Shown here one piece after another: positions 1-29,030 of a stretch of DNA of 64,000 bases. This DNA is from Dehalococcoidia bacterium (GTDB lineage Bacteria > Chloroflexota > Dehalococcoidia > Plut-88900), in NCBI GenBank assembly GCA_965207225.1, contig CBDBLV010000005.1, positions 672,001-736,000 on the forward strand, written 5' to 3'. Position numbers and translations under genes: made by a program. Positions within the stretch are counted from its first letter, which is position 1; each line of letters starts with the position of its first letter. Below the pieces are notes generated by a model. It was not told the DNA's origin. It did no database searches and was given only the letters and a program-made list of their open reading frames with translations.

Positions 1-1
1 C

Positions 2-157
2 CGCATCGTCGACCCCGAAGGCATCCACCTCTTCTTCGACTACTCCCACCACGACATCGCCGAACAATACCTCACCGACCTCGCCCTCGTAACCGCCCAA
101 ACCCGGTCCGGCAACATCACCCGCCGCCCCACCCAAACCACCTACACCCGCAGCTAG
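2..157 (+). CDS. 3' end of a gene truncated by the window edge; possibly a PLP-dependent decarboxylase/sphingosine-1-phosphate lyase-like C-terminus
   Basis: Open frame RIVDPEGIHLFFDYSHHDIAEQYLTDL...TRS* with the C-ending codon usage of + strand genes. The family guess rests only on the PxxIHL...h...YLxDL pattern. Confidence 0.4.
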   Translation, partial: RIVDPEGIHLFFDYSHHDIAEQYLTDLALVTAQTRSGNITRRPTQTTYTRS

Positions 158-212
158 CCCCATCCGGTTCCCTTCCCCCCTCGTCATCCCGAGATCCTCT
201 CCTTCCCGGTGC

Positions 213-273
213 GGGGCCGCTCACCCTGAGTTCCGTCGAAGAGCCTGCCCCTGCGTAGGCAGGGGGTCGAGCG
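213..273 (+). repeat. Repeat family C (GGCCGCTCA-n2-CTGAG-n4-GTCGAAG-n3-GAGCG), copy 1, interrupted by a 23-nt insert
   Basis: Near-identical copies at 19461-19500, 29718-29755 and 62485-62522. Confidence 0.8.
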
Positions 274-334
274 TGGGGAGGCCCACGCATCTTCAACCCC
301 TCACATAACTCCACTGACAACTCACGCCCCTCAC

Positions 335-400
335 TGTCATTCCGAACGGCAGTGAGGAATCTGGGGAGGTGCAGTGCAGGTCTCCCAACTCGCCTGGATA
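335..400 (+). repeat. Repeat family D (TGTCATTCCGA-n6-GYGAGGAATCT) with a shared 3' extension
   Basis: The core and about 40 nt downstream recur at 2562-2626. Further cores at 514-538, 19373-19400, 24905-24932 and 28559-28582. Confidence 0.85.
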
Positions 401-413
401 TGCACCCTTCCGC

Positions 414-438
414 GTAGGGGCGACCGGCGGGTCGCCCT
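414..438 (+). repeat. GTAG-type REP hairpin (GTAGGGGCGACC-n4-GGTCGCCC)
   Basis: GTAG tetramer followed by a GC-rich palindrome. Related copies at 1909-1934, 1969-1992, 17080-17108, 19424-19447, 28452-28477 and about 29191-29217. Confidence 0.8.
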
Positions 439-598
439 GGGGGCAGTGGGGGGCGGCCCGCGCATTGCTCAACCATCGCGTTGCCCCACCACGAACCCGC
501 GCCTCTCCTCTCCCATCCCGATGCCCCGCGAGGAATCTCAAACGCCCCTCCCCCAACCCACCATGATTCTTGCAACTCTCACCTCTTACTGACGTCCC

Positions 599-700
599 CC
601 CTTGGTAAAGAATTATCAGCAATGCCGCTTGGCGGCATTGCTGATAATTCAAATAAAACAGGGCGGGCGGGTGGGACTCCATTTACTCCCGGGACGGCGG
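599..700 (+). repeat. Repeat family B copy 1: fixed flanks around a perfect 19-bp palindrome (610-650)
   Basis: CCCTTGGnAAA-[palindrome]-AA(A)TAAAACAGGrCGGGCGGGTGGGAC. Second copy at 28783-28876. Confidence 0.85.
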
Positions 701-715
701 GGGGCACCCCTCCCC

Positions 716-829
716 CAGTACCAAACTAGAGGCCCACACCTGCGCCTTAGCGCAGGTGTGGGCCTCTGTTTTTTCTCCCCCTCTCCCTTACAGGCCCTAA
801 GGGAGAGGGGGACCAAGGGGGAGAGGGTT
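716..829 (+). repeat. Repeat family A copy 1 (CAGTAC-yrAAC-T-AGAGGC...GCCTCT-GTT, then a CCCCCTCTCCCTTA/TAAGGGAGAGGGGG hairpin)
   Basis: Copies at 2658-2707, 2727-2868, 2948-3064, 4699-4816 and 28902-29006; remnant at 2529-2545. Confidence 0.9.
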
Positions 830-936
830 ACCCGTGAAAGTGCAGCGCCGATTTGCTCCCGGGGCAACCGGGAGGGGGTGAGAGTTCCCCCAGGGGGCCG
901 GGGGAAAATCCCCCCAAAACTGCCCCCTTTGCCCTA

Positions 937-964
937 TTGACAAATATGCTATAAGTTCTATACT
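937..964 (+). promoter_or_regulatory. Putative sigma70 promoter for ORF 979-2061
   Basis: TTGACA (937-942), 16-nt spacer, TATACT (959-964), in an AT-rich patch 15 nt before the ATG. Confidence 0.6.
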
Positions 965-978
965 AACGTTCAGACCTA

Positions 979-2061
979 ATGTCTACACCCAAACTTCACA
1001 ACAAACCATTATCAATAGACCATCACCCCTCCAACGGGGTGCCCGCTCAAGAGGCGGCTGATCCCTCCCCGGGACCCGACCTGGCCCCGGATGCCCGCGG
1101 CCCTGCGCCGCGGAAGAACCCCCGAGGCCCGGCTCCTCAAGGAGCAATCCTCACGACCTCGGATGCCTGCGGCAACCTACCGCAGAAGAAGACCCGCACC
1201 CCCGCCCCTGCACGTCAGGAGCGCAGTCGACGCGGAAGACCGTACCCGCAAAACCGCGATGGGTCCGGTAATGCCGGCCAAGCCGAAGGCTCGTTGCCGC
1301 GTCTGGCCCCCGAGGGCCGGGGCTTCGAGCAGGAGATTTCTCTCCTTCGTTCCATGATCAACCGCCTCTTGAGCAGGCGCCCCCTGAATCACACCTACAT
1401 CTCCCGCTACATGAGACTTCTCATTCAGGCCCAGACCGCCCAGGCCAAAGCCCCCAAAGAACTCACCGACGAACAGGAAGTCGACTCCCTGATCAAGAAG
1501 CACTTCCACAAGGAAGTGGATGATGGCAATACCTCCTACTATGACCTCCTGCCCGTCCGCACCGCCCAACCCGGGGACAAATGGTGGCCGTGGAGGCAGC
1601 TGGTGTCTATTGATGAACGACGCCGGGACGGCCTCATCGATGAAGAGGACTCCACCATGATGGATGCCATGAAAGAGGCCGAGTCCAGCTACTACGGACT
1701 GTCCGACGATGATCCCCCCGACGACACTGACACTTTCGATGATGACCCCGACGACGATGACTATGACCCGGATGACCCGGATTCTTCTTCCAATCCCGAC
1801 AACCAAGACCCCGATGATGAAGACCCCCACCCCGACTACCCGCCCTGCAACCATAACCTGGACGATGACGCCCCGCCCCCCGAAGAAATGGGTCCATCCC
1901 TCTCCCCTGTAGGGGTGCCCCTTGTGGGTACCCTGGACGCCGCCCACGCCGATACCCTCCCCTCCCCCGTAGGGGCGACCGGCCGGTCGCCCGGTTGGGC
2001 CTACCCTTTTCCCAGCCCCTCACCCAAACCCCGCATCGCCAGAGGCCGCCCCCCGCCCTGA
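979..2061 (+). CDS. Hypothetical protein with Pro-rich N-terminus, helical core (FEQEISLLRSMINRLL) and Asp/Pro-rich low-complexity tail
   Basis: 360-aa ORF with an upstream promoter and typical + strand codon usage. The C-terminus is made of translated REP hairpins. Confidence 0.65.
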   Translation: MSTPKLHNKPLSIDHHPSNGVPAQEAADPSPGPDLAPDARGPAPRKNPRGPAPQGAILTTSDACGNLPQKKTRTPAPARQERSRRGRPYPQNRDGSGNAGQAEGSLPRLAPEGRGFEQEISLLRSMINRLLSRRPLNHTYISRYMRLLIQAQTAQAKAPKELTDEQEVDSLIKKHFHKEVDDGNTSYYDLLPVRTAQPGDKWWPWRQLVSIDERRRDGLIDEEDSTMMDAMKEAESSYYGLSDDDPPDDTDTFDDDPDDDDYDPDDPDSSSNPDNQDPDDEDPHPDYPPCNHNLDDDAPPPEEMGPSLSPVGVPLVGTLDAAHADTLPSPVGATGRSPGWAYPFPSPSPKPRIARGRPPP

Positions 2062-2123
2062 CCCAAATAACCCGCGCCCTAAAACTGAATACCACAACCC
2101 CCCAGTCTGCCTTGGAGTAAGCA

Positions 2124-2582
2124 TTGAGAAGACCGAGAAGACTGAGAAAATCTAAGGGATACAGAAGACGCCTTGAAGGCCTCGTAGGCAAGCGCACGCG
2201 CTTCACCGCCGTGTTGAGAAGGCGCTACAGTGGCCCCCGCCGCGTCTTGCTGGTAGACGTCCGCAACCCCGAGACCGGCGCCCAGGTCACCGACCACCTC
2301 TGGTTTAACGAAGGAAAGTGGAGCTCTCGCATACGCCCCCGCAACACCATCGCCTTCGACGCCCGCGTCGTCCCCTACCTCAAGGGACGCGGCCCCGCCA
2401 AATTCCTCGACTACAGGCTCGAACGCCCCACCCAGGTCCAGGTCCTCAGCCGCCACCCCTGCTCTCCCCGAAACTCATCCCGCCCAAACCGCAACGCCCG
2501 CAGGCTGCTGATATCCCAACCCTCTCCCCAGTCTGAACCAGAGGCTTTCACCCTCTCCCATTGTCATTCCGAACGGCAGTGA
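2124..2582 (+). CDS. Hypothetical basic protein (VLLxDV...VTDHLWF..GK...FDARV..Y.KG)
   Basis: GGAG RBS then TTG start; globular-looking core. The 3' end runs into repeat DNA. Confidence 0.65.
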   Translation: MRRPRRLRKSKGYRRRLEGLVGKRTRFTAVLRRRYSGPRRVLLVDVRNPETGAQVTDHLWFNEGKWSSRIRPRNTIAFDARVVPYLKGRGPAKFLDYRLERPTQVQVLSRHPCSPRNSSRPNRNARRLLISQPSPQSEPEAFTLSHCHSERQ

Positions 2583-2626
2583 GGAATCTGGGGAGGTGAG
2601 GTGCAGGTCTCGCAATTCACCTGGAC
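2562..2626 (+). repeat. Repeat family D copy with extension
   Basis: Direct repeat of 335-400. Confidence 0.85.
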
Positions 2627-2657
2627 ATTCGGGACAGCAACTCTCCCCTCTCCCCAC

Positions 2658-3064
2658 CAGCACTGAACTAGAGGCCCACGTGCGTGCCTGCATCCACGTG
2701 GGCCGTTATTATTCCCTCCCCTCCCCCAGTACCAAACTAGAGGCAAGCGCCTGCGCCTTGGCGCAGGCGCTTGCCTCTGTTTAACTCTCCCCCTCTCCCT
2801 TACAAGCCCTAAGAGCCTGCCCCGAGTCCCTCGAGGAGGAGAGGGCGACCAAGGGAGTGAGGGTTCCCCGTTGGTTGGCTGTATCCTCGCCAGGAATCCA
2901 TTTCACCCAACAGCCAAGATTCCATCTCGTTCTGTTCCTCTCCCCCCCAGTACCGAACTGGAGGCCCACGTGCGTGCTCTGCACGCACGTGGGCCTCTGT
3001 TCTTCTCTCCCCCTCTCCCTTAAAGGCCCTAAGGGAGAGGGGGACCAAGGGGGAGAGGGTTCCC
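2658..3064 (+). repeat. Cluster of three family A units (2658-2707 degenerate, 2727-2868, 2948-3064)
   Basis: Repeated CAGyAC-nnAACTrGAGGC heads with different palindrome cores. Confidence 0.9.
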
Positions 3065-3167
3065 TTCGTAGTCAAGGCGTATTCTGGGAAGCACCCCCTT
3101 GGCGGACAAGCCATCCCCCACCCCCTATGCTACAATCCCCCAAAACCCTCCCCCGACGGCTCACACC

Positions 3168-3518
3168 ATGCTTTACATACTCCTCGCCACCCTCACGACC
3201 GACGGTCAGCGCAAGCTCATCGACAACCCTGACCTCATCAATCAGGTCGCCAAAGAGATCAACGTTCCCCACGCCAGCCTCCTCTCCCGCTACATGGTTC
3301 TCGGCCGGTACGACTTCGTTCTAATCGCCCAGGCCGACGACCCCGAGTCCGCCGCCCGTCTCTCCCTCGAGTTCGGCCTCCGCGCCGGCGTCCACACCGA
3401 GACCCTCCAGGCCATCAACGTTGACCTCCTCGCCGGCGCCTCCGAAGACGACCTCCTCTCCGCCATCACCGAGACCTTCGCCCCCGCCGACGGCGCTCCC
3501 CCCACCCCCGACACCTAA
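3168..3518 (+). CDS. GYD domain-containing protein
   Basis: MLYILLATLTTDG...YMVLGRYDFVLI...TETLQA matches the GYD family pattern; start taken at ATG 3168. Confidence 0.85.
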   Translation: MLYILLATLTTDGQRKLIDNPDLINQVAKEINVPHASLLSRYMVLGRYDFVLIAQADDPESAARLSLEFGLRAGVHTETLQAINVDLLAGASEDDLLSAITETFAPADGAPPTPDT

Positions 3519-3534
3519 CAGAAAGGGCCAACCC

Positions 3535-4689
3535 ATGACCACCCTGGACTTCGAAATATCCGAGTTCGAAGACCGCCAGACCAGGACACGCGCCGCCATG
3601 GAAGCGGCCGGCATTGACCTCCTCATCGTCACCCACCCCGTCCACATCCACTGGCTCATCGGCAGCCGTATCAAGGGCTACCAGGAATTCCAGGCCCTCC
3701 TCTTCACCCTCGAACCCTCCGACAACCTCCTCCTGACCCGCTTCGCAGATGTGGTCGAAGCAGCCGACCTCTCCCTCTCCAACGACGTACGCGGCTGGGG
3801 CCGGGACCCCGGCGACGACGCCATCCCCATCCTCAAGTCCATCCTTGAAGAGAAAAGCTACCTCAACCGCAAGATCGGCCTCGAAGTCCCCGACACCTAT
3901 CTCAACGTCCACGACTACCTCCAGCTCCGCGACATCCTCGGTGACTCCCTCGTCTCCGAACTCACTGGCCTCGTCGAGAAGCTCAAGCTCGTCAAGTCTC
4001 CCGCCGAACTCGTCTACATCCGCAAAGCCTCCGACATCAACGACGCCGTCCATCAGACCTGCATCGACACCCTCGCCGCCGGCAAGACCGAGTTCGAAGT
4101 CGTCGCCGATATGCACCGCACCATGATCGCCAACTTCGGCGACTTCACCTCCAGCCCCATGAACTTCGTCAGCGGCGAGCGCACCGTCTACTCCCACGGC
4201 TTCCCCTCCGAGCGAGTCATGCAACATGGCGACCTCGTCCATCACGAATACGGTGCCGCTTACCGGCGCTACACTTGTACCATCGGCCGGGTCCTCTGCA
4301 TCGGCGAACCAACGGCCCGTATGAAAGAGGTCTACCAGGTCGTCCGTGACGCCTGCGACGCCCAGATAGCTGCCATCAAGGACGGCGTAGCCGCCTCCGT
4401 CCCCCACGAAGCCGCTAAGAAAGTCATCGGCGATGCTGGCATGGAGGAAGGCCGGTGGCACACCAGCGGCTACGGCATCGCCCCCAGCTTCCCCCCGAGA
4501 TGGTCCGAGGACATCCAGATGGACGGCACCACCGACGAACCCCTCCGCAGCGGCATGGTCCTCTCCATCGAACCCCCCGTCTTCCTCCCCGAGGAAAAGC
4601 TCGGTGCCCGCATCATCGACAACGTCCTCGTAACAGACACCGGCGCCGAAATCCTCTCCAAAACCTCCCGAGACCTCACCATCGTCTGA
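3535..4689 (+). CDS. M24 family hydrolase, creatinase/ectoine hydrolase (DoeA/EutD)-like
   Basis: Creatinase N-domain, KSPAEL linker, GYGIAPSFPPRWSE and GMVLSIEP. The aminopeptidase P metal ligands are partly lost. Confidence 0.85.
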   Translation: MTTLDFEISEFEDRQTRTRAAMEAAGIDLLIVTHPVHIHWLIGSRIKGYQEFQALLFTLEPSDNLLLTRFADVVEAADLSLSNDVRGWGRDPGDDAIPILKSILEEKSYLNRKIGLEVPDTYLNVHDYLQLRDILGDSLVSELTGLVEKLKLVKSPAELVYIRKASDINDAVHQTCIDTLAAGKTEFEVVADMHRTMIANFGDFTSSPMNFVSGERTVYSHGFPSERVMQHGDLVHHEYGAAYRRYTCTIGRVLCIGEPTARMKEVYQVVRDACDAQIAAIKDGVAASVPHEAAKKVIGDAGMEEGRWHTSGYGIAPSFPPRWSEDIQMDGTTDEPLRSGMVLSIEPPVFLPEEKLGARIIDNVLVTDTGAEILSKTSRDLTIV

Positions 4690-4698
4690 CCCCCTCCT

Positions 4699-4816
4699 CA
4701 GTACTGAACTAGAGGCCCGCATTGGCGCTCTACGCCAATGCGGGCCTCTGTTCTTATCTCCCCCTCTCCCTTATCGGCCCTAAGGGAGAGGGGGACCAAG
4801 GGGGTGAGGGTTTCCC
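4699..4816 (+). repeat. Repeat family A copy
   Basis: CAGTACTGAACTAGAGGCCCGCATTGGCG-ctcta-CGCCAATGCGGGCCTCTGTTC followed by the second hairpin. Confidence 0.9.
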
Positions 4817-4920
4817 CTGTGGAGTCGTGGGAGCAGCATTCCGAGAGTGTAGGACGGTCCGAACTCCACTTAATCCTGAGGTGCTGGGGGGCGTCGCAGC
4901 TTTCCTTGGACGTAGACCCC

Positions 4921-6027
4921 CTACCCCACCCCCACATCTACCGGGAACTCCCTCACCTCCCCACCCATCCCCGCCACCACCGCTCGACCCGCCGCCACCG
5001 ACGCTGTCCTCGCCATCTCCACGTCAACCTCGAACGCCTCTCCCTCCACCGTGATAGTGTACCGACGCCGGGCAACCGCCGTACCCAGGTACTCCTTCAC
5101 CCTCTCAACCCCGGCTTCCTGCTCCCTCAACGCCTCGTGCGCCTCCTCCAGTGTGACCTTCTGGAAGCGCATCTCGTCACCCGGCATCCTCTGGGCTACC
5201 TTGCCTATGTCTGCGCTTATCACAGTCGCCGGCTTCGTGTAGCCCCCCGACGTCCCCCGGTCCGCCATCAGCACTATCGGCTGCCCGTCCCCCGACACCT
5301 GCACACCCCCAAACGGTATCCCGTCCGATATGATGTCCGGCCCCGATACGTGCTCTATCTTCGGCCCCTGCAACCGGTACCCCATCCTGTCGGACTGTGC
5401 CGACACCGTGAATGCCTCCCCCAGGAGAGTGTCTAGACCTGACTCCGTGAACCTGTCGTCCTGCGGCCCCAGGATCACCCGGATGGGCAGACTGGCGTCA
5501 TACCTCGGCACGAGGCTGCGCGGTATCCGTCTCCCCGACATCCCACCCGACGAGTCCGGCAGGCGCGTAACCAGCATGTCCCCGGCCTTCAGTGCCCGAC
5601 CGTCGAACCCCCCAATCCCCGCCTTCATAAACGTCGACTTGCTCCCCATCACCACCGGCACGTCCAGCCCCCCGGCCACCGCCACGTAGGCCCGTGTCCC
5701 CGACTCCTGCCCCCCGAAGGAAAGCAAGTTCCCCTGCTGCACCGTCGCCGAACCCCACGTCGGAATCGGCGAACCATTGATGCTGGGCGACAGGTCGGCC
5801 CCCGTAACCGCAATCACCGCCGCCGACCTGAACCTCAACCTCGGCCCCGACAGCGTCACTTCCAGGCAAGCCTCTTCTTCCGGATTGCCCACCAGCAGGT
5901 TCGCCAGCCGCAGCGCCACCGGGTCCATCGCCCCCGATACCGGCACCCCGTGCCTCAGATATCCGAACCTTCCCACGTCCTGTACCGTGGTCAGCAGCCC
6001 TGGCTCGATGACCTCGATTACGCCCAT
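4921..6027 (-). CDS. pxpC: 5-oxoprolinase subunit C (allophanate hydrolase subunit 2 family)
   Basis: PGLLTTVQDxGR, GVPVSGAMD, SDRMGYRL and GGYxK motifs; operon with pxpA and pxpB. Confidence 0.92.
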   Translation of the reverse strand: MGVIEVIEPGLLTTVQDVGRFGYLRHGVPVSGAMDPVALRLANLLVGNPEEEACLEVTLSGPRLRFRSAAVIAVTGADLSPSINGSPIPTWGSATVQQGNLLSFGGQESGTRAYVAVAGGLDVPVVMGSKSTFMKAGIGGFDGRALKAGDMLVTRLPDSSGGMSGRRIPRSLVPRYDASLPIRVILGPQDDRFTESGLDTLLGEAFTVSAQSDRMGYRLQGPKIEHVSGPDIISDGIPFGGVQVSGDGQPIVLMADRGTSGGYTKPATVISADIGKVAQRMPGDEMRFQKVTLEEAHEALREQEAGVERVKEYLGTAVARRRYTITVEGEAFEVDVEMARTASVAAGRAVVAGMGGEVREFPVDVGVG

Positions 6028-6034
6028 CCTCTAA

Positions 6035-6769
6035 TCACCCTGCTTCCCGAATCGTGACCTTGAACGTCCCTGCTTCCACCTCGCCCTCGATCTCCCTGTA
6101 CCTGATCTCGTCGATGGACGTGAACCTCACCAGGTCACCCGCCATCACCAGCGAAGGCGGCTCCCTCCCCGGGTCGAACATCCTTATCGGAGACCTGCCT
6201 ATCACCCTCCACCCTCCCGGACTCGCCAGCGGGTATATCCCCGTCTGCCGCTCCGCTATCCCCACCGATCCCGGCACCATCCGCACCCGGGGCGTAGGCA
6301 GCCGAGGCGTAGCTATCCTCTCCGACATTCCGCCCAGGTACGGGAACCCTGGATTGAAGCCGACCATGTACACCAGGTAGTCTGACCCCGTGTGGACTTC
6401 CACCACTTCCGCCTCGCTGATCCCGTTGTGCGAAGCCACAAAGTCGATGTCCGGGCCATACTCTCCCCCGTACAGCGTGGGAATCTCCACGATCTTCGCC
6501 CCACCCAGCTCCGCATCCTCCAGGTTCCCGTACAACACCGAGATCTGCTCCTTGAGCACCTCGGGTTCCACCGTCAACGGATCGTAGTAGACGAGGATGG
6601 AGCGGTAAGTCGGGGCAAGGGCCTGAACGCCCGCAAGGTCGGCCTTATCAATCGCGCTGAGCAGGTTGCGAATGCCCCGGTTTACTTCGGGCGTGATCTC
6701 ATCACCCACCTCAACGAATAGCGAGCGGTCACCGCCGTTCCGAAAGCTGAGTTCGCTGAAGAGTGGCAT
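6035..6769 (-). CDS. pxpB: 5-oxoprolinase subunit B
   Basis: YGGEYGPD, GFNPGFPYLGG, GSVGIA and SPGGW motifs. Confidence 0.95.
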   Translation of the reverse strand: MPLFSELSFRNGGDRSLFVEVGDEITPEVNRGIRNLLSAIDKADLAGVQALAPTYRSILVYYDPLTVEPEVLKEQISVLYGNLEDAELGGAKIVEIPTLYGGEYGPDIDFVASHNGISEAEVVEVHTGSDYLVYMVGFNPGFPYLGGMSERIATPRLPTPRVRMVPGSVGIAERQTGIYPLASPGGWRVIGRSPIRMFDPGREPPSLVMAGDLVRFTSIDEIRYREIEGEVEAGTFKVTIREAG

Positions 6770-6797
6770 TCCTTGGATTCTGCGAATAGGAGAGGAC

Positions 6798-7562
6798 CTA
6801 GCAGAAGGTACCCATCGGCGTCACCTCTACCCCCGACTCCTCGAACCGCCTCCGGATCGCCGACGCCAGTTCCACCGCCCCCGGGTTGTCCCCATGTAGG
6901 CAGATCGTATCCGCCTCCACCGGGATCTCCTCGCCCGTGATCGCCGTGATCTTGCCCTCGGTCACCATCTTCAGGCTCCGCTCCACCACCATGTCCGGAT
7001 CGTGCAGCACCGAACCTTCCACCGACCTCGCCACCAACGTCCCATCCGCGTTGAAAGCTCTATCCGCAAACGTCTCCTGGGCAATCCTGTTGCCCATCTC
7101 CTTCCCGATCTTCACCCAGTTAGTGCCAGCCAGCACCACCAGTATGATCTCCGGGTCGATGTCCAGGATAGCCTGGCAGATTCCCTTGGCAAGGTCGTCG
7201 TTCTTCACCGCCGCGTTATAGAGCGCCCCGTGCGCCTTCACGTGCTGCAGCTTTGCCCCCCCGAGGAACCCCTGCAGAGCCCCGACTTGATACTTCACGT
7301 AAGCCCGTGCCTCCTCCGGTGTCGCCGTCATGTTCCTCCGCCCAAATCCCAGCAGGTCCGGGAAGCTCGGGTGCGCCCCTATGGCCACCCCGTTCTCCTT
7401 CGCCAGGTTCACCGTGTGCTGCATCCACACCGGGTCCCCTGCATGGTAGCCGCACGCCACATTGGAAGAAGTAACGTGCTTGATTACCTCTTCGTCCAAG
7501 CCCATCTTCCACGCCCCGAAGCTCTCTCCCATGTCGCAATTGAAGTCTATTTTTGCCGCCAT
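6798..7562 (-). CDS. pxpA: 5-oxoprolinase subunit A (LamB/YcsF)
   Basis: DFNCDMGESFG, NVACGYHAGDP, HVKAHGALYN and ICLHGD motifs. Confidence 0.95.
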   Translation of the reverse strand: MAAKIDFNCDMGESFGAWKMGLDEEVIKHVTSSNVACGYHAGDPVWMQHTVNLAKENGVAIGAHPSFPDLLGFGRRNMTATPEEARAYVKYQVGALQGFLGGAKLQHVKAHGALYNAAVKNDDLAKGICQAILDIDPEIILVVLAGTNWVKIGKEMGNRIAQETFADRAFNADGTLVARSVEGSVLHDPDMVVERSLKMVTEGKITAITGEEIPVEADTICLHGDNPGAVELASAIRRRFEESGVEVTPMGTFC

Positions 7563-7667
7563 CTCCTGTTGCCCCCCGACTCGAAATACTGGGTGTCCGA
7601 ATATGAGCTATCCTACAAGTCGCCCGCTTTGAGTGTCAATGAACACCCACCCCCGAGACATTCCGCT

Positions 7668-8861
7668 ATGCCCGAAAATCCGCTTGAGTTCCTAATCATC
7701 GAAGAGGCCCGCCGCAAGGGCCCCATCACCTTCGCCCGTTTCATGGAGTTGGCCCTCTATCACCCGACCCTCGGCTATTACCCCACGGGTCCCGACCCCA
7801 TAGGCGCCGACGGCGACTTCTATACCAGCCCCGGGGCCCATCCCGCCTTTGGCGCCCTCCTCGCCATCCAGCTCGCCGACATGTGGGACAAGCTCGGCAA
7901 CCCCTTCCCCTTTCACGCTATCGAACTCGGCGCTGGCTCCGGTATCCTCGCCACCGACATCCTCGAATTTGCCCCTCACATCTCCCCAGCTTTCTCCGAA
8001 GCCCTCCAATACGTCACCATAGATAGACGCCCAGCCCACAACGCGGCAGGAGCCCACCCCATCATCTCCGATGCTCTCCCCCTCCGAAACATAACTGGCT
8101 GCATCCTCTCCAACGAATACTTCGACGCCCTCCCCGTCCACCGGGTCACGATGCAGAACGGCAGGCTCCTGGAAGTCTACGTCGGCCTGGAAGATGACAC
8201 CCTAGTTGAAGTCATCGGCAAACCCTCCACCCCCCTACTCCAGCAAAGATTGACCGACCTCAACGTCACCTTCGCAGAGGGTCAAAAGGCTGAGATTGAC
8301 CTCGCTCTTGATACCATCACCCGCTCCCTCTCGCATTCCCTCCGCTGCGGCTATGTCCTCACCTTCGACTACGGCCACCCCGCCCGAGACCTCTACTCCC
8401 CCTCCCGACTCTCGGGCACGCTTGCTTGCCACTACCAGCACACCCTGAACACTCAGCCACTCCGGCGTATCGGCCATCAGGACATCACCGCCCACGTGGA
8501 TTTCACAACCCTTGCCAAAACCGGGGGATGCTACGGACTTGAATCCGGCGAATTGGTTACCCAGAGAGACTTCCTGGGCAACCTCGGCATCGTGACACTA
8601 AAGGATCGCCTGAGAGACCTAGGCCTGACCACCACCCAGTACAACGCCAACCTCATGGCCCTCGGCAACCTCATAGACCCCGACGCCCTCGGCGGCTTCA
8701 AAGTCCTAGTCCAGTCCAAGGGCGTTGGATTGGAAAATCTGTCCGGCCTCGGCGGCCAGGGCCGCATCTTCACCCACGACCTCCCCGTCCCCCTCCCCAC
8801 CCGACGCCACCTCAACCTCCTACGGGGCAAATACCCTCACCTCGCCTGGGAAGTCACCTAG
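7668..8861 (+). CDS. SAM-dependent methyltransferase, MidA/NDUFAF7 family
   Basis: GPITFARFMELALY, GDFYTSP, ELGAGSG, SNEYFDALP, DYG and QDITAHVDF. Start taken at ATG 7668; the longer ORF call overlaps pxpA. Confidence 0.92.
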   Translation: MPENPLEFLIIEEARRKGPITFARFMELALYHPTLGYYPTGPDPIGADGDFYTSPGAHPAFGALLAIQLADMWDKLGNPFPFHAIELGAGSGILATDILEFAPHISPAFSEALQYVTIDRRPAHNAAGAHPIISDALPLRNITGCILSNEYFDALPVHRVTMQNGRLLEVYVGLEDDTLVEVIGKPSTPLLQQRLTDLNVTFAEGQKAEIDLALDTITRSLSHSLRCGYVLTFDYGHPARDLYSPSRLSGTLACHYQHTLNTQPLRRIGHQDITAHVDFTTLAKTGGCYGLESGELVTQRDFLGNLGIVTLKDRLRDLGLTTTQYNANLMALGNLIDPDALGGFKVLVQSKGVGLENLSGLGGQGRIFTHDLPVPLPTRRHLNLLRGKYPHLAWEVT

Positions 8862-8897
8862 CTGTAACCAGCCCTCTTCCCGCGCCACCCGAATTGC

Positions 8898-9701
8898 CTA
8901 GAACCCCGCTATATCCTCCCCGCCGTCCACCCCGATAACGTCGCCGTTGATCCAGTTCGTCGGACCTGTTGCCAGCATCGCGATAGCCGCCGCTACGTCC
9001 TGCGGTGTCGTCATTCTCCCGCTCGGATTGTTCGCTGTGGCACCGGCTATCAGGTCCTCGTGGCCCGGGATCTTCCTTAGTGCCGGCGTGTCTGTTATCC
9101 CGGCTCTTACCGCGTTCACCGTGATCCCTCGACCCCCAAGCTCCATCGCCAGCTGCCTCACGTGCGACTCCAGCGCTGCCTTCGCCGCCGACACCGCTCC
9201 GTATGTCGGCACAACCCGGTGAGACCCGGCGCTCGTCAACGCATACACCCGACCCCCCTCCCCCATCAGCCCCCTGTGCACCAGGTCCTGCATCCAGTAC
9301 ACCAGCGTGTTCGCCATCACGTGCAGCGTCATATCCATCTGCGCCTGCGTCAACGAGTCCTTCGGGTCATCCGTGATATACGCCTTCAGAGTCCCGAACG
9401 CCAGCGAGTGGACCAGAACCTTCACCGACTCCCCTTCCCCCAGGTTCTCTTTCACGCTGTCCAGTACGCTTGCCCTCTTGGCGTCATCCGCGGCATTTGT
9501 GTTAAAGAACAGCGCCTTCACCCCCGACTCCTCGATCTTAGCTGCTATAGCCTCGGCGTTTGCCAGCGTTGCCCTCCTGTCCAGGTGGACTCCCGCAATG
9601 TTTAGTCCCTTTTCTGCCAGGGCCAGCGCACACGCCCCCCCGAACCCGCTGGACGCACCCAGCACTACCGCCCAGTCCCGACCGTCGTTCGCTCCGTTCA
9701 A
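8898..9701 (-). CDS. SDR oxidoreductase, enoyl-ACP reductase (FabL/FabI)-like
   Basis: GASSGFG, YGAVSAAK (Y-x6-K spacing) and TDTPALRKIPG. Confidence 0.85.
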   Translation of the reverse strand: MNGANDGRDWAVVLGASSGFGGACALALAEKGLNIAGVHLDRRATLANAEAIAAKIEESGVKALFFNTNAADDAKRASVLDSVKENLGEGESVKVLVHSLAFGTLKAYITDDPKDSLTQAQMDMTLHVMANTLVYWMQDLVHRGLMGEGGRVYALTSAGSHRVVPTYGAVSAAKAALESHVRQLAMELGGRGITVNAVRAGITDTPALRKIPGHEDLIAGATANNPSGRMTTPQDVAAAIAMLATGPTNWINGDVIGVDGGEDIAGF

Positions 9702-10090
9702 TCTTTGTTACCTCCGTGGCCTGGGTCTCGGCGCCTGGTTATCTCCACCGCCGCGCCCTTGAGTTTCGCACCCTTTAGCGGCACATCCGGCTTGCCAACC
9801 TTCACCCTTATCTGCTCAACGGGGAAGTCTCTTAGCACCCGACCTGCAATTTCACCCGCCACCGCCTCGATGAGATCGCGGGAAGGCCCTTCTACAATTT
9901 CCTTGATTGAGCGGAAGACGTGGCTGTAATTAACGGTGTCTTCCAGGTCGTCCGTCTCCGAGGCCCTGCTCAGATCGGCAGTCATCTCAACATCGACTAT
10001 GAAGCGCTGTCCCTGGGTCTTCTCGCTCTCATTGACCCCGTGATAGGCATAGAACTCCATGCCTTCCAGCAGGATCTTGTCGCCCTGCAA
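9698..10090 (-). CDS. folB: Dihydroneopterin aldolase
   Basis: FYAYHGV..EK..GQRF, DDLEDTVNY, LIEAVA and KP motifs. Confidence 0.95.
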   Translation of the reverse strand: MQGDKILLEGMEFYAYHGVNESEKTQGQRFIVDVEMTADLSRASETDDLEDTVNYSHVFRSIKEIVEGPSRDLIEAVAGEIAGRVLRDFPVEQIRVKVGKPDVPLKGAKLKGAAVEITRRRDPGHGGNKD

Positions 10091-10098
10091 CGGAGCCC

Positions 10099-10674
10099 CT
10101 ACGCCTTGGCCAGCCTTCCGTCCAGCCCAAGCTCCGAGGCCACGCCGTGCATCGCCTCGATGATCGTCGCTATATGATCGTCAAGCTCGACGCCTAGTTG
10201 CGCCGTCCCGTTCGTGATGTCTTCACGAATAACGCCGCGGGCGAAAGACTTGTCCTTCAGCTTCTTCTTCACCGACCTGACTTTCACATCACCTATGTTC
10301 TTGGTCGGCTGCACCAGCGCAACGGCGTTCACCAGGCCGACCAGCTCGTCGCACGCGAATATAGCCTTGTCCATGTTCGTCCTGCGCTCAAGACCCAGGT
10401 AGTCGGCGTGACACTGGATAGCGTAGATGACCTCTTCCGGGAATCCCCGCTCTCTCAGGATCCTGGAGCCTTCCATCGGGTGCTTGTCGACTGTCGGGTG
10501 TACCTCGTAGTCGAAGTCATGCAGAAGCCCGACAAGCCCATACACATCTTCATCCTCCCCATATTTGCGGGCGTAGGCCCGCATCGCCGCCTCCACTCCG
10601 AGCCCGTGCTTCCGCAGCTTCTCGCTCTTCGTGTACTCGTATAGGAGGTCTAGCGCCTCCTGTCTCGTTTTCAT
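10099..10674 (-). CDS. HD-domain phosphohydrolase
   Basis: GLLHDFDYE, ACDEL and KxKDKSFARGV motifs. Confidence 0.9.
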   Translation of the reverse strand: MKTRQEALDLLYEYTKSEKLRKHGLGVEAAMRAYARKYGEDEDVYGLVGLLHDFDYEVHPTVDKHPMEGSRILRERGFPEEVIYAIQCHADYLGLERRTNMDKAIFACDELVGLVNAVALVQPTKNIGDVKVRSVKKKLKDKSFARGVIREDITNGTAQLGVELDDHIATIIEAMHGVASELGLDGRLAKA

Positions 10675-10713
10675 AGGCTCACGCTTGAGAGCGACTGTTG
10701 GACTGCAGGCTGC

Positions 10714-11175
10714 CTAGAGCGCAGCAGCCTTCGCGGCAAGCGCTTTGACGTCGGGCAGACCGCCCTCATAAACCTCCGCCGCCTGCACCACTCCCTGCTT
10801 GTCTATCAGGAAGCACGCCCGCTTGCTAATCCCGTTCTCAGTCATGATCCCGTACAGATCGGCAACCGCGCCCTTGGGATGGAAGTCAGCCAGCAGCGGG
10901 AACCACAAGCCTCCTAGCGTCAGGTCGTACACCTTGTGCGCAAAGATGCTGTCTATGCTCAGCCCTAGCACCTGAGTGTTGGCGTCTTCAAAGGACTTCT
11001 TGGCCGCCCGAAGGGTAGCCAGTTCCGTGCTTCAGCCACCTGTGAAATCAAGTATGTAGAATGCCAGCAGTACGTTCTTTTCCCCTTTGTATTGGCTCAG
11101 GGTGACCTTACCTCCCTGAGTTGCCTGAAGGGTGAAGTCCGGGGCTTCCTGCCCGATCTGGACCTGCTCTGCCAT
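10714..11175 (-). CDS. AhpE-like peroxiredoxin, probable selenoprotein (UGA at 11032-11034)
   Basis: Two ORF-track fragments are in one frame, separated only by TGA: APDFTL...FYILDFTGG(U)STEL...FPLLADFHPKGAVADLYG...RACFLIDK. GGAGG RBS before ATG 11175. Confidence 0.88.
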
Positions 11176-11354
11176 GAGTTTTCCTCCTAGAATTTTCGTC
11201 TGAGGCTGCTTCCCGCAGCCGTGCAATCATATCACAAAGCACTTAATTCAGCTTCAGACCCGACTGTACGTTTGAGGGCCGGGCTACCGGATGCTATCTT
11301 ATGACAGACTATCCCGCTAACCCGTTTACTAGCGTAAGAACTAAGACCGCTGTC

Positions 11355-11660
11355 ATGAATGCCCAGGTTGCAATCCAAAAGAAGAGACTCGCATCCCTTT
11401 GTCGTGCCAAAGGCATTAAGCGGTTGGCCGTATTCGGTTCTGCCCTCCGCCCCGACTTCTCACCTGAGAGCGACATCGACGTCTTGGTCGAATTCGAACG
11501 GGGCCGCACTCCCGGACTGCTGGGTATAAGTCGCCTGGAACGAGAGCTTTCACCCTTGTTTGGTCAACGAAAGATCGACCTGCGCACCCTCGAAGACCTG
11601 AGCATCTACTTCCGCCAAGAGGTAATGGAAGAGGCTGAAGTGCAGTATGGACAGGCTTGA
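11355..11660 (+). CDS. Minimal nucleotidyltransferase (MNT) antitoxin
   Basis: FGSALRPDF..ESDIDVLVEF; overlaps the HEPN gene. Start could be 11301 or 11355. Confidence 0.9.
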   Translation: MNAQVAIQKKRLASLCRAKGIKRLAVFGSALRPDFSPESDIDVLVEFERGRTPGLLGISRLERELSPLFGQRKIDLRTLEDLSIYFRQEVMEEAEVQYGQA

Positions 11661-11991
11661 TGCGGTTCGCCTCCGTCACATGCTGGACGCGGCGCGTGAG
11701 GCTCTGTCGTTCATAGAAGGGAAAAACCGATCTGAGCTCGACGCAAATCGGATACTGGTTCTGTCGCTGGTTAAAGAGGTTGAGATTATCGGTGAGGCGG
11801 CCTACAGAGTATCAGAATCCACCCGAAATGAGCTTCCTGCAATCCCTTGGGCCGATGTAATAGGCATGCGTCATCGACTCGTCCACGCCTACTTTGATAT
11901 CAATCTTGATGTATTGTGGCGTACGCTGGTGCAGGACATTCCCCTACTGATCCCAGCGATAGAGGGCACGCTGACTGGGAGCTCACATTGA
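11647..11991 (+). CDS. DUF86/HepT-like HEPN RNase toxin
   Basis: EIIGEAA, IPW, R-x4-H-x-Y (RHRLVHAY); lower-GC insert. Confidence 0.9.
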   Translation: MDRLDAVRLRHMLDAAREALSFIEGKNRSELDANRILVLSLVKEVEIIGEAAYRVSESTRNELPAIPWADVIGMRHRLVHAYFDINLDVLWRTLVQDIPLLIPAIEGTLTGSSH

Positions 11992-12028
11992 GTGAGGAGG
12001 TTGGGGCTACGTGGAAGCGTCTGCTCAG

Positions 12029-13174
12029 CTATCCCCGCTCATCCAGCGGCACGTACTCCAGGTCCATAGGGCCCGTGTACTCCGCCAGCGGCCGGATCAA
12101 TATGTTCTTCTCGTGCTGCTCCACCACCTGCAGCGTCCACCCCGGGATCCGACCCATCGCGAACAGCGGAATGAACAGGTCGTCCGGGATCCCGAGAAGG
12201 TGGTAGATCGAACCCGCGTAGAAGTCCACGTTCACGAACACGCCCCGCTTCCGATATGGCGCCATCGCCTCTTCCACCCTGGTCAGGATCTGATACCACT
12301 CCGGCTGTCCCATCTTCTGCCCCAGCGCCCGAGACCTCTCCCTCAGGTGACCCGCCCGTGGGTCCTCGGCCTTGTAAACCCGGTGCCCGAATCCCATGAT
12401 CCGACCGCCGTTTTTGATCGTGTCTCGCACGTATGTCTCTGCGTTGTCCGGAGACCCGATCGCCAGCGTCATAGTCTGCGCCGCCTCCGCCGCACCCCCA
12501 TGCGCTGGCCCCTTCAGCACAGCAATTCCCGTCACTACTGCCGAGTGCAGGTCCGAAATCGTGCTGGCACACACCCGAGCTGCAAACGCCGACGCATTCG
12601 TCCCATGTTCAGCGTGCAGGATAAAGTCCACGTCCAGTAGCTTGGCATCCTCTTCCGTTGGCTTCTCCCCGTGCAGCATGTGCAGGAAGCTCGCCGCATG
12701 ACCTAGGGTCGGGTCTGGAGTCACCGGCACCAACCCCTGCCTTATCCGGTGGTGCGCCGCAACTATTGTCGCTGCCTGAGACGTCAGCCGGATCCCCTTT
12801 CGGATGTTCGATTCCGACGAGTTGTCATCTACGTCAGGGTCAAAAGCCGACAGAGCTGACACCCCAGTCCGCATCACGTCCATCGGGTGGGCGTCCTTCG
12901 CCAGGTCGATTACCTGGTAGACCGCATCGGGTATCTGGCGGCTGCTCTTTAACGACTCGTCTATTTCGCTTAGCTGGCTGCGGGTGGGCAGGGACCCGTG
13001 TAGGAGCAGGTAGGTCGTCTCTTCAAATGTCGACTTTTCGGCCAGGTCGTGAATGTTATATCCACGATACAGGAGCTTGCCGACCTCACCATCTATGAAA
13101 GATGCCGCGGACCGTTCGAAATATATCCCCTTCAGGCCCCGATGTAGCTGGATCTCTTCTTTGGCCTCGGCCAT
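12029..13174 (-). CDS. Citrate synthase / 2-methylcitrate synthase
   Basis: LLYRGY, HAEHGTNAS, GPAHGGA, GFGHRVYK, NVDFY and IRP motifs. Confidence 0.95.
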   Translation of the reverse strand: MAEAKEEIQLHRGLKGIYFERSAASFIDGEVGKLLYRGYNIHDLAEKSTFEETTYLLLHGSLPTRSQLSEIDESLKSSRQIPDAVYQVIDLAKDAHPMDVMRTGVSALSAFDPDVDDNSSESNIRKGIRLTSQAATIVAAHHRIRQGLVPVTPDPTLGHAASFLHMLHGEKPTEEDAKLLDVDFILHAEHGTNASAFAARVCASTISDLHSAVVTGIAVLKGPAHGGAAEAAQTMTLAIGSPDNAETYVRDTIKNGGRIMGFGHRVYKAEDPRAGHLRERSRALGQKMGQPEWYQILTRVEEAMAPYRKRGVFVNVDFYAGSIYHLLGIPDDLFIPLFAMGRIPGWTLQVVEQHEKNILIRPLAEYTGPMDLEYVPLDERG

Positions 13175-13507
13175 TACTGCTCCCTGAATGCCCTGCCTAT
13201 TTTTCAGGCAGCCCCGATGCCCTGGGCCTTTACCCCATCGCGCTGCCCGATTTGTCTGATGATTCTCTGGTTATGCGCCCCTAATTCTGCCCTTAAATCG
13301 TGTCCCGCGTCTCGTCGCTTTTTGGGAGTCTGGGGTGCGGGCGTAAAGCACAGGCGCCGAGTTGCGACTTTATCATCGCGCCTGCCTGAGTGTCAACAGC
13401 GTATCACGTTTTCCTGCCCTTGCTTCTCTTTTTCCGGCCCGCATTCCCTCCCCCCAAATGCTCTTGCGAATACCTCTTGGCTGCCCATGCCCTTGCTAGC
13501 CTCCAAG

Positions 13508-13537
13508 TTGACAAACTACCCCCCCTGATGTTAGGAT
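13508..13537 (+). promoter_or_regulatory. Putative sigma70 promoter for korAB
   Basis: TTGACA, 18-nt spacer, extended -10 TG-t-TAGGAT. Confidence 0.5.
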
Positions 13538-13699
13538 GCCCCGGCCCTTGGCTACTGGTCAGTGGGCAAACTTGTGTGTTGGCGGGCCCTTGTCCTACCG
13601 ACAATAAGCGCGCAATAAATGTGAAGAAGTGGATTACCTGCAAATGGCCCGATACCCGACTCCCCTATTGTTCGGGCCTCCTAGACAGGAGAGTGGCAA

Positions 13700-15415: not shown

Positions 15416-16311
15416 CCACCCTGAAGCAAGCCCCAAGGAAAGCCCCGAAGGTCAAGAACCCCGAGTACGACTTCAAGTGGTGCCCCGGCTGCGGTGACTT
15501 CGGAGTCCGGCGCGCTGTCGAAATGGCCATCCGCGAAAGGGCCCTCAGGGACGAAGCCCCCCTAACCGAGACCGTAATCGTTGCCGGCATTGGCTGCTCC
15601 GGCAACCTCGTCCACCTCGTCGAGGGCGAGCAGCCCTTCGGAATTCACGGTGTCCACGGCCGTACCCTCCCCCAGGCCTTCGGCATTAAGATGGGCCGCC
15701 CCGAGCTTAGCGTCCTCGTCGTTGCCGGAGACGGCGACTTCCTCAGCATCGGTGGCGAACACATCGTTCCTCAGGCCCAGCGCAACCTCGATGTCTGCGC
15801 GGTGATCATGGACAACGGCGTCTACGGCCTCACCAAGGGCCAGAGCTCCCCGACCACCGAATTCGGCGTAAAGACTTCCAGCACCCCCTACGGCAAGATC
15901 GAAGGCTCCGTCGACCCCTTGGACCTCTACCTCACCGCCGGCGTCTCCTTTATCGCTTCCGGATTCTCAGGCAAGCCCAAGGACTTGGCCAGCCTCATAG
16001 TGCAGGGCATGGATCACAAGGGTTTCTCCATCGTCCACATCCAGTCCCCTTGCACCGAGTACAACGACACCTACGAGCTTCTCAAGGGCAACGCCAAGCA
16101 AGGCATCAAGCCCGCCCTCTGGCCCCTCCCCGACGACTATGACTCCTCCGACAAGCGGTCCGCCTACGAGGCCATTCACGAACCCGGCATCCCCGTTGGC
16201 ATTCTCTACAAAGACCCCGATTCCGTACCCATGCAGGACCGCCAGGACGAGATCCGGGGCAAGGCCCGTCAGAGGCCCCTCTCAAAACTCCTCGACGGTT
16301 TCAGGGTCTAG
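15412..16311 (+). CDS. korB: 2-oxoacid:ferredoxin oxidoreductase beta subunit
   Basis: WCPGCG, GIGCS, GDGD TPP motif and YGLTKGQSSPT. Confidence 0.93.
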   Translation: MTTLKQAPRKAPKVKNPEYDFKWCPGCGDFGVRRAVEMAIRERALRDEAPLTETVIVAGIGCSGNLVHLVEGEQPFGIHGVHGRTLPQAFGIKMGRPELSVLVVAGDGDFLSIGGEHIVPQAQRNLDVCAVIMDNGVYGLTKGQSSPTTEFGVKTSSTPYGKIEGSVDPLDLYLTAGVSFIASGFSGKPKDLASLIVQGMDHKGFSIVHIQSPCTEYNDTYELLKGNAKQGIKPALWPLPDDYDSSDKRSAYEAIHEPGIPVGILYKDPDSVPMQDRQDEIRGKARQRPLSKLLDGFRV

Positions 16312-16337
16312 TAAGTCCCCCCAATATAGTTGAGCCT

Positions 16338-28451: not shown

Positions 28452-29030
28452 GCAGGGATGTCCCTAGTGGGCATCCTCCCCGGCGGACGGGCCACCCACC
28501 CCGAGTTGCGTCGGACCCGTCACCCTTGCCTCCCCTCTCACCCCGACATCCCCCTTCCCATCCCGATGCCCCGCGGGGATCTGCAGCACCCCTCCGTCAC
28601 CCACCTCGTCCCCTGCAATCAGCCACTCGCTTACACGTCATTCCTGCGGAGGCAGAGCCTGCCCCTGCGAAGGCAGGGGAATCCATCCCTCCTAAATGAT
28701 CGCCTGCATCCCGGCAATCCACATCTAACCCCCTCCCCAAACCCACCCTACTCATTGCCACCCTCACACCTACCTGTCTCCTCCCTTGGCAAAGACATAT
28801 CAAAAATGCACTGCATTTTTGATATGTCAATAAAACAGGACGGGCGGGTGGGACCCATAATCATCCCGGGGTGGCGAGGAATTGTGTCCTTTCTTTATCC
28901 CCAGTACTGAACTAGAGGCCCACGTGGGTGCAGCGCACCCACGTGGGCCTCTGTTCTTCTTTCCCCCTCTCCCTTATAGGCCCTAAGGGAGAGGAGGACC
29001 AAGGGGCCGGGGGGATATTCCTCCCAAAAG
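28452..29030 (+). repeat. Composite repeat cluster: REP-like, family D, family F with 23-nt insert, family B copy 2, family A copy
   Basis: Units at 28452-28477, 28559-28582, 28637-28684, 28783-28876 and 28902-29006. The D-B-A order matches 514-920. Confidence 0.85.

Follow-up and report, generated by a model that had tools for sequence, protein, structure and literature searches.

The repeat family and its copies in the window

The window analysed in this study is a 64,000-nucleotide (nt) stretch of the genome of a Dehalococcoidia bacterium, and its subject is a hairpin, here named HP1, that recurs between the genes of that genome. The genome, referred to as G000, has a size of 4.03 Mb in five contigs with about 61% G+C, and the window corresponds to positions 672001-736000 of its contig C5. 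HP1 alone is about 60 nt long and is composed of a 4-base-pair (bp) A/T base, an 18-bp GC-rich upper stem of near-free sequence and a T/C-rich tail, with the unpaired tag CAGTAC in front; a second hairpin, HP2, and a G-rich tail mostly follow it. The HP1 family is real and well defined and is of the kind of the repetitive extragenic palindromes (REPs) and bacterial interspersed mosaic elements (BIMEs), notable for its perfect hypervariable stems, the lack of a known mobiliser and a near-absolute strand polarity. This polarity, the terminator-like shape of the hairpin and the fact that it is one separable part of a wider mosaic with promoters go beyond the original prediction, which had described the repeat from the letters of the window alone. 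All gene calls are those of our own crude caller.

The head motif CAGTACNRAACTRGAGGC on which the original prediction was built is real, and its sequences are as first written: at up to two mismatches it matches six times in the window (at 716, 2658, 2727, 2948, 4699 and 28902, every time on the + strand), against 0.02 matches expected from shuffles. The number of copies had been given as six plus a remnant, although the text of that prediction names five. The actual inventory is five intact copies and one remnant, since the covariance model R1 gives exactly five full copies (702-777, 2713-2788, 2934-3008, 4685-4759 and 28888-28962, scoring 79-90 bits) and the match at 2658 has a broken 3' arm. 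The five intact copies fold as DNA at -26.9 to -28.5 kcal/mol (z between -8.3 and -11.5), and the remnant at 2658 folds at -12.6 kcal/mol. The five upper-stem cores listed earlier are as written and all are perfectly paired, the stem base covaries as described (AAAC/GTTT at 716 and 2727; GAAC/GTTC at 2948, 4699 and 28902), and a CCCCCTCTCCCTTA..TAAGGGAGAGG hairpin comes after each of the five intact copies.

All features of these copies lie on the + strand. The first copy begins with a C/T-rich leader ending in CCCC (702..715, from the position profile), followed by HP1 (716..771) with CAGTAC, a C, AAAC, the bulged T at 727, the 18-bp stem, the loop CTTA and GTTT. This hairpin folds as DNA at -28.2 kcal/mol (z -10.8) and is the top terminator-like site in window 1-20000. 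The HP2 of this copy (774..812) has the C-arm TCTCCCCCTCTCCCTTA, the loop CAGGCCC and the G-arm TAAGGGAGAGGGGGA, and is followed by the G-rich tail CCAAGGGGGAGAGGGTTACCC (813..833, likewise from the position profile). Further on, at the downstream end of the mosaic, a promoter-like TTGACA-16-TATACT matches 11 of 12 consensus positions (937..964). The remnant (2641..2714), recognised by motif and DNA fold, consists of a leader, CAGCAC and a hairpin whose 3' arm is damaged, and is without HP2. Copies 2 and 3 were delimited with model R1: copy 2 (2713..2869) consists of HP1 (2727-2782), an HP2 that holds a nested extra hairpin (AGCCTGCCCCGAGTCCCTCGAGG) and the tail, and copy 3 (2934..3064) of HP1 (2948-3002), HP2 and the tail. 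Copy 4 (4690..4822; BLAST limits 791-923 of the query) has the same three parts, and its HP1 (4699-4753) begins 10 nt past the stop codon that closes an M24 peptidase gene (3421-4689). Copy 5 (28888..29000, model R1) has HP1 at 28902-28956, HP2 and a shortened tail.

Architecture and covariation of HP1

Across G000 the head motif has 134 matches at up to two mismatches and 151 at up to three. A closing arm is found in 116 of the 151, and these are the intact copies; the remaining 35 are truncated copies or chance coding matches. Position profiles of the 116 copies and BLAST limits delimit a conserved unit of about 131 nt, in which a C/T-rich leader of about 14 nt is followed by CAGTAC, a pyrimidine, the base RAAC/GTTY, the bulged T, the upper stem, the loop (mostly 2-5 nt), TTCT, HP2 and the tail; conservation in the profile begins about 14 nt ahead of CAGTAC. 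Among the 116 copies the tag is GTAC or GTAT, within CAGTAC or CAGTAT, with 1 nt between it and the stem on the 5' side. G-C forms the basal pair in 71 of them, A-T in 33, G.T in eight and other combinations in four, and the basal stem RAAC/GTTY holds one or two G/C before the 1-nt bulge. The T after AAC had been claimed to be always unpaired, and the bulged base is indeed T in 115 of the 116 intact copies.

Above this base the stems are nearly perfect while their sequence varies. No mismatch occurs in the first 21 pairs of 81 of the 116 copies, and 71 distinct 22-nt arms are found among them. Stem positions 10-20 each have two to four Watson-Crick pair types, the share of Watson-Crick pairs being at least 94% throughout and, with the exception of position 20, at least 97%, and the per-site diversity of 0.46 at these positions compares with 0.02 for mismatched cells. 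Among 98 nearest-neighbour pairs of copies there are 71 fully compensated double changes and 78 one-arm changes. Covariation in a larger alignment, which had been set beforehand as the check on the prediction, is upheld on 33 copies from nine genomes (score 0.506, versus 0.159 for shuffled alignments and at most 0.099 with slid partners); none of 500 shuffles reaches the observed score, a count that is not a probability because the copies are related. The slid-partner controls and the nearest-neighbour counts agree in direction with the shuffle test. With 99.2% of the cells paired and 13 of the 22 pairs varying on both sides, HP1 is the structure-defined element that it was proposed to be. Wobble pairs, unlike in typical RNA helices, are not a tolerated state in its stems.

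Distribution of the family

HP1 copies are spread over all five contigs of G000, on both strands and between genes, so the single orientation originally noted holds inside the window and not genome-wide. Seven of the 116 copies overlap weak open reading frames (ORFs), and large stretches of the genome are without copies. A strict pattern finds the element in all eight congeners (1 to 83 copies each) and in none of 22 other genomes, comprising three from other genera of the family and 19 from other families of the class. Similarly, among 141 sampled genomes of the class, a covariance model matches all six belonging to the genus (G000 and five congeners) and reveals no true member in the other 135. 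Marginal matches of this model in genus g9 (E about 1e-4, three of six genomes) were rejected, as they represent one orthologous ordinary terminator without the tag. A scan of 185,579 species with one genome per species yielded at least 98 loci, and every locus listed is titled as a metagenome-assembled genome (MAG) of Dehalococcoidia. In these searches the HP1 family was thus found in one genus of uncultured Dehalococcoidia only.

The family, which the original prediction did not recognise, is not in Rfam: a scan of the window at the gathering score gave no match; an E-value scan of eight HP1-holding loci returned only sub-threshold miRNA-like matches and a 5S rRNA. Moreover, the portions available to us of the literature on Chloroflexi and Dehalococcoidia repeats, including that on sponge Chloroflexi/SAR202, describe no repeat of this kind.

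Strand polarity

The GC skew of G000 is very strong and patchy, reaching about +/-0.25 per 50 kb, and within a block its sign is common to genes of both strands; the window sits inside a block of about -0.15 to -0.19. The orientation of HP1 follows this composition closely. In 106 of the 116 copies the CAGTAC strand is the locally C-rich strand, as it is in 91 of the 95 copies where |skew| exceeds 0.05, and most of the exceptions fall where the skew is near zero. When the skew is calculated from coding sequence only, 105 of the 116 copies have CAGTAC on the C-rich strand (p = 2e-20). All 21 copies at 18 loci in the eight congeners obey the same rule (two of these loci overlap). The genes themselves are unbiased with regard to skew (993 to 977). 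In a map of the skew at 50-kb resolution, near-zero-skew regions hold no HP1 copies.

The other repeat modules tested show the same polarity: the GTCATTCC hairpin module stands at 116 to 3, the tail without HP1 at 21 to 4, and the TTCAATCAA module at 25 to 4. The figure of 116 to 3, stricter than that of HP1, is the one for a hairpin repeat GTCATTCCGA.GCCCCGCGAGGAATC, which numbers about 119 copies where |skew| > 0.05 (three mismatches allowed), one of them in the window at 2563-2590. The ends of an IS481-family insertion sequence have no polarity (4 to 4). The leading strand is usually the G-rich one (G>C), and by this rule the CAGTAC strand would be placed on the lagging strand.

A polarity of 91-96% to local strand composition with unbiased genes, common to every other repeat module tested and to eight congeners, would also be expected if HP1 were a polar chromosome signal, that is, a protein-binding site oriented relative to replication in the manner of FtsK-orienting polar sequences (KOPS) or Chi. 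The conserved tag and bulge suggest contact with a protein and fit such a role too. Still, we consider this explanation very unlikely: copy numbers from 1 to 83 among congeners and sites that are not kept at 94% identity would be strange if the signal were essential, large parts of the genome are without copies, and the known polar chromosome signals are short oligomers.

Gain, loss and exchange at orthologous sites

Comparison with congeners shows that the element comes and goes at given sites. One comparison is with G008, a congener about 94% identical to G000 whose assembly is one contig of 3.43 Mb. HP1 is present in both at site 716, with the tag CAGTAC in G000 and CAGCAC in G008, and the base AAAC/GTTT in the former and GAAC/GTTC in the latter. 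All 12 core positions differ between them; the HP2 that adjoins on the right is almost the same in both, and no relation is seen between the left flanks. The 73-nt remnant block (2641-2714) is missing from G008, copy 2 (2727) has an orthologue there that shares its core, and at site 2948 G008 is without HP1 while it keeps HP2 (with the nested hairpin) and the tail. The whole mosaic block of about 330 nt at site 28902 is missing from G008. As HP1 is gained, lost or swapped independently of HP2 and the tail among congeners, it constitutes a separable module.

At site 4699 the HP1 element is missing in all eight congeners. One of them has a plain spacer of 146 nt, five have a low-GC gene of 1.1 kb and two have other repeat modules. 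This gene of about 1.1 kb, lower in GC and lying between the M24 peptidase and carboxyltransferase genes, is present in G002, G003, G005, G006 and G008. The C-rich stretch after the stop codon is already there at the 4699 site in hairpin-free congeners, and hence the leader may not belong to the element but be a favoured target. G005 and G001 are without any copy between genes 2124-2582 and 3421-4689. No target-site duplication was found, the similarity between leader and downstream sequence being 8.22 within a copy versus 8.30 +/- 0.04 between copies. Metagenome contigs from four runs over window 1-6000 break at the repeats and gave no clean empty-site joints.

Segments bounded by mosaics vary as well. 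G007 is without the whole of window 158-3117, and the flanks are 22 nt apart there; in G000 this is a 2.96-kb segment bounded by mosaics, with two ORFs (979-2058 and 2124-2579) that have no Pfam domains. Together with the four same-orientation copies that bracket three ORFs in window 716-4760, the absence of this segment could be taken to suggest attC-like recombination sites of an integron or cassette cluster, and HP1 shares with such sites a folded form, an AAC...GTT base and an extrahelical base. We regard this idea as close to refuted. The best matches to the integron integrase model (TIGR02249) reach 77.9 and 71 bits where 265 is the cut-off, and sub-threshold matches of a similar kind occur in control genomes. 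The copies are dispersed on five contigs and both strands, and many flank no ORF. Furthermore, the attC core-site consensus is RYYYAAC...GTTRRRY, whereas the 3' side of HP1 reads GTTCTTC or GTTTTTT and its R boxes pair over just 4 bp.

The mosaic around HP1

HP1 is for the most part found in company. HP2 (consensus CTCCCCCTCTCCCTTA, a 7-nt loop, TAAGGGAGAGGGGG) follows within 15 nt in 104 of the 116 copies, and G000 also has about 30 HP2 units that lack HP1. The G-rich tail has the consensus AnCAAGGGGGTGAGGGTTCC, and 103 of the 138 tail motifs of the genome fall within 140 nt after an HP1. On the upstream side, a module in which CCCTTGGTAAAGA is followed by a perfect, AT-rich hairpin (its sequence being of two types) and then AATAAAACAGGGCGGGCGGGTGGGAC has 21 copies in the genome, with window copies at 610-700 and 28800-28860; by eye, about half of the 21 lead straight into an HP1. 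About a dozen same-orientation pairs of HP1, 0.8-1.3 kb apart, enclose a repeated, promoter-driven unit of about 1 kb (for instance at G000 C5:1004600-1006400). The promoter of this unit is TTGCAC-17-TATACT; the unit also has a Shine-Dalgarno-like site, an ATG and a frame of weak coding character, and a module with three TTCAATCAA repeats comes after it.

Inspection by eye also found the HP2 loop both ways round between the same arms, as nnGGCCC and as GGGCCnn (for instance at C5:1036238, 1315038 and 912397), which suggests inversion of the loop at the level of DNA. An IS481-family insertion sequence of 1267 bp, whose domains are rve and LZ_Tnp_IS481, has four copies with an identity of 99.8-100% (G000 C1:39132-40398, C4:457416-458682, C4:503513-504779 and C5:1203768-1205034). 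Every one of the four sits exactly inside an HP2 hairpin loop, and therefore the insertion sequence targets the repeat.

Transcription context and two alternative functions

Among the 115 copies that could be classified by gene context, those between tandem genes are in sense orientation in 42 cases and antisense in 15 (p = 0.0005). Divergent regions hold 39 copies (34%, versus 15% of all intergenic regions) and convergent regions 19. An upstream gene is co-oriented with the hairpin in 61 of the 115 copies, and 20 of these 61 start within 100 nt past its stop codon. A promoter-like site in the sense direction lies within 330 nt downstream of 43 of the 116 copies, against a background of 4.6% of all gene upstream regions. 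At other positions such sites are almost absent from the 116 copies (none downstream antisense, one upstream sense and one upstream antisense). The mosaic is therefore directional, with the terminator-like hairpin first and the promoter last.

The near absence of upstream sense promoters, found in one of 116 copies, makes a free-standing small-RNA gene, one of the functions first proposed, unlikely. Small RNA genes, or 3' domains of small RNAs, were considered more broadly, as 65 full elements analysed with RNAalifold form a closed three-way junction whose helices are leader:tail, HP1 and HP2, and the upstream modules that run into an HP1 could be terminated by it. The leader:tail helix was rejected on inspection, since it has no covariation and no copy-specific fit (8.52 pairs versus 8.52 shuffled). 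There is also no Rfam match, and a stem of free sequence could hardly serve an RNA function that depends on sequence. We therefore hold a small-RNA identity to be highly improbable.

Ordinary intrinsic terminators are a more serious alternative. The copies would then be selected for stability and termination and multiplied by intergenic duplication and recombination, with no dedicated mobility. HP1 has the GC-rich stem, the A-tract before and the T/C-rich tract after that are expected of a terminator, and HP1 copies take the first three places among the terminator-like sites of window 1-20000; unique terminator-like sites in the same interval show similar T/C-rich tails. A weak match to the model also comes from an unrelated genus of Dehalococcoidia, where a terminator similar in overall shape occurs as a single copy, and the sense bias and the proximity to co-oriented stop codons given above agree with this explanation. 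Several observations are nevertheless difficult to reconcile with it. Altogether 54 of the 115 copies are below an oppositely oriented gene, 39 of them in divergent regions, and the orientation of the copies tracks strand composition (106/116) and not gene direction. The unpaired CAGTAC tag and the bulged T (115/116) are conserved and yet unneeded for stability, G.U is not favoured in stems that are 97-100% Watson-Crick at almost every position, and the core has been wholly replaced at one orthologous site (716). Taken together, we find it unlikely that HP1 copies are plain terminators.

Search for mobilising enzymes

The original prediction had suggested a recombination or transposition site. 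HP1 does behave as movable or exchangeable DNA at orthologous sites, but the enzymes of the analogues then named were not found. The Y1 HUH transposase (PF01797) has no match in any of the 12 genomes of the family that were searched (nine in the genus, including G000; 80-94% complete), with 6 of 14 controls positive, and neither TnpB (PF07282) nor the IS110 transposase (PF01548) has a match in G000. Four reverse transcriptase genes (PF00078) are present in G000. Two of them belong to a group II intron, which was tried as a mobiliser and rejected, as the two copies with identical reverse transcriptase adjoin no HP1. This intron is 2.4 kb long and encodes a reverse transcriptase of 586 amino acids, and its two copies (C2:157229-159645 and C5:1547551-1549967) are 99.8% identical. 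The DnaA model also picked up at least 12 IstB-like (IS21 helper) ORFs in G000.

These results bear on the possibility that HP1 is a classical REP family moved by a Y1 transposase of the RAYT (REP-associated tyrosine transposase) or IS200 type, the gene of which has been lost or lies in the 7-20% of these genomes that is unassembled. The REP search rule given in PMC6006769 (this paper and PMC3733652 were both available in part) asks for a tetranucleotide tag, GTAG or GTGG, 0-2 nt 5' of a hairpin with a bulge of 1-3 nt and a loop of 2-5 nt; its basal stem has 7-20 fully paired nt, with at least three G/C among the first four, followed by the bulge and a second stem. The general architecture of HP1 fits this rule. 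Likewise, the absence of a target-site duplication is as in REPs, and strand polarity is what single-strand transposition at the fork should produce according to the same part of PMC6006769. PMC3733652 reports, in the portion at hand, that some REP-bearing strains are without REPtrons and that CGTC REPs are without a dedicated transposase. Against such an origin speak the absence of PF01797 at this completeness with positive controls, a tag of GTAC instead of GTAG or GTGG, and a basal stem of 4 bp that is A/T-rich instead of at least 7 bp that is G/C-rich. None of 31 neighbouring pairs closer than 2.5 kb is inverted; all 31 are in direct orientation, and so there are no REPIN-like inverted doublets. 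We judge a classical, RAYT-moved family to be quite unlikely, although a GTAC-tagged REP family could be included in the supplementary lists of PMC6006769 or PMC3733652, which lie outside the portions used here.

Interpretation

We favour, with modest confidence, the reading that HP1 is a REP/BIME-like, structure-defined module of a genus-specific intergenic mosaic, which is subject to strand-specific copying or exchange of DNA and acts as an intrinsic terminator in the sense direction. Under this reading, HP1 copies would spread, or be overwritten from other copies, through a DNA process specific to one strand, with the hairpin folding in single-stranded form at the replication fork. Candidate processes are template switching, gene conversion among copies, or a structure-specific enzyme that would read the CAGTAC tag and the bulge. 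Intrastrand copying could keep the arms complementary while their sequence drifts. In the sense transcript, the hairpin with its U/C-rich tail would be a Rho-independent terminator, and might close the upstream transcript ahead of the promoter borne by the downstream modules.

A number of observations weigh against this combined interpretation. Markers of the leading strand are conflicting or null (dnaA, 16S and 5S rRNA, L2 and tRNA genes): the C-rich strand is the sense strand of 16S and 5S, dnaA is located on the G-rich one and the tRNA genes are split 16 to 16. In the single contig of G008 the orientation of the element flips about 16 times, and therefore a simple picture of two replichores does not fit unless there were many inversions or the blocks have another cause. 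That HP1 would serve as an intrinsic terminator in sense transcripts is proposed from its shape; 54 copies are without a co-oriented upstream gene on which it could act, and a plain terminator needs neither a conserved CAGTAC tag nor a fixed bulge. There is a weak excess of G.T over A.C mismatches (26 versus 14, p = 0.08). Reverse-complement HP1 loops do exist within stem groups, but in a loop-flip test for DNA-level inversion their number (32 of 57 loops) is not significant in comparison with 27.3 +/- 3.9 in shuffled data. Finally, no mobiliser was found among Y1, TnpB, IS110 and integron integrase in these 80-94% complete genomes.

A more specific proposal, which we regard as tentative and rather doubtful, is that a system independent of RAYT moves or overwrites the tagged hairpins on one replication strand by reading the tag, the 4-bp base and the bulged T, and restores perfect arms through intrastrand copying. 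If this were true, HP1 would represent a class of mobile DNA, so far undescribed, that is defined by its structure, and the orientation of every repeat module in these genomes may be due to the same process. The broader reading of HP1 as a strand-specifically copied mosaic module also has consequences. The orientation rule is near-absolute with respect to strand composition while the genes show no strand bias, and if the polarity reflects replication, the elements would be a built-in record of fork direction and past inversions. If the mosaics pair a terminator with a promoter, they would form movable transcription punctuation that could rewire the expression of neighbouring genes.

Comparison with known systems

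The mosaic organisation recalls the Neisseria intergenic mosaic and Correia elements, which are mosaics of short modules in which promoters and terminator-like hairpins can occur. The terminal inverted repeats and the TA duplication of Correia elements are both missing from HP1, and sequences and hosts are unrelated. HP1 also differs from miniature transposable elements with inverted repeats (MITEs) of the DDE type, as it has no target-site duplication and no copy-specific flank similarity. With intrinsic terminators it shares the GC-rich stem-loop, the T-rich tract after and the A-rich one before, and a position that is often just past a stop codon; it is set apart by its repetition in more than 100 copies, by the conservation of its unpaired tag and its bulge, and by an orientation that follows strand composition. 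The attC sites are similarly structure-defined, with little sequence constraint, an AAC/GTT base and extrahelical bases. In contrast to them, HP1 is without an IntI above the cut-off, its copies are dispersed and not arrayed, and its core sites are off the consensus; the typical attC stem is, moreover, far less perfect than that of HP1.

The ends of IS200/IS605 elements are recognised as folded single-stranded DNA, with insertion beside a short target and no target-site duplication, and their orientation is tied to the lagging-strand template (from the portion of PMC6006769 available), which resembles the behaviour of HP1. These elements need TnpA (Y1) and often TnpB, neither of which was found, and have two unlike ends around a body where HP1 is a single hairpin.

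The closest likeness is to the REPs and BIMEs of Proteobacteria and other bacteria. As far as the available parts of PMC3733652 and PMC6006769 describe them, these are high-copy intergenic hairpins with a 5' tetranucleotide tag and an order of basal stem, bulge and upper stem; subfamilies coexist, form mosaics and vary in copy number between lineages without target-site duplication, and REPs have been proposed as terminators or mRNA stabilisers. HP1 differs from them in its (CA)GTAC tag, its 4-bp A/T-rich base and its 18-bp, essentially perfect upper stem of free sequence, in the absence of RAYT from 12 of 12 genomes, and in a polarity to strand composition above 90%. The nearest precedent of a tagged palindrome without a transposase is that of the CGTC-tagged REPs (e.g. 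the Rickettsia RPE-type), which according to PMC3733652 'apparently lack a dedicated transposase'. They have another tag and stem design and occur in another phylum, and the portion of PMC3733652 consulted reports no strand polarity for them. The question of how REP-like hairpins arise and spread without RAYT is raised for CGTC repeats in that portion, and the HP1 family offers a clean case of it, with a near-absolute orientation rule and with more than 100 hypervariable yet perfectly paired stems that are gained, lost and swapped between genomes of about 94% identity.

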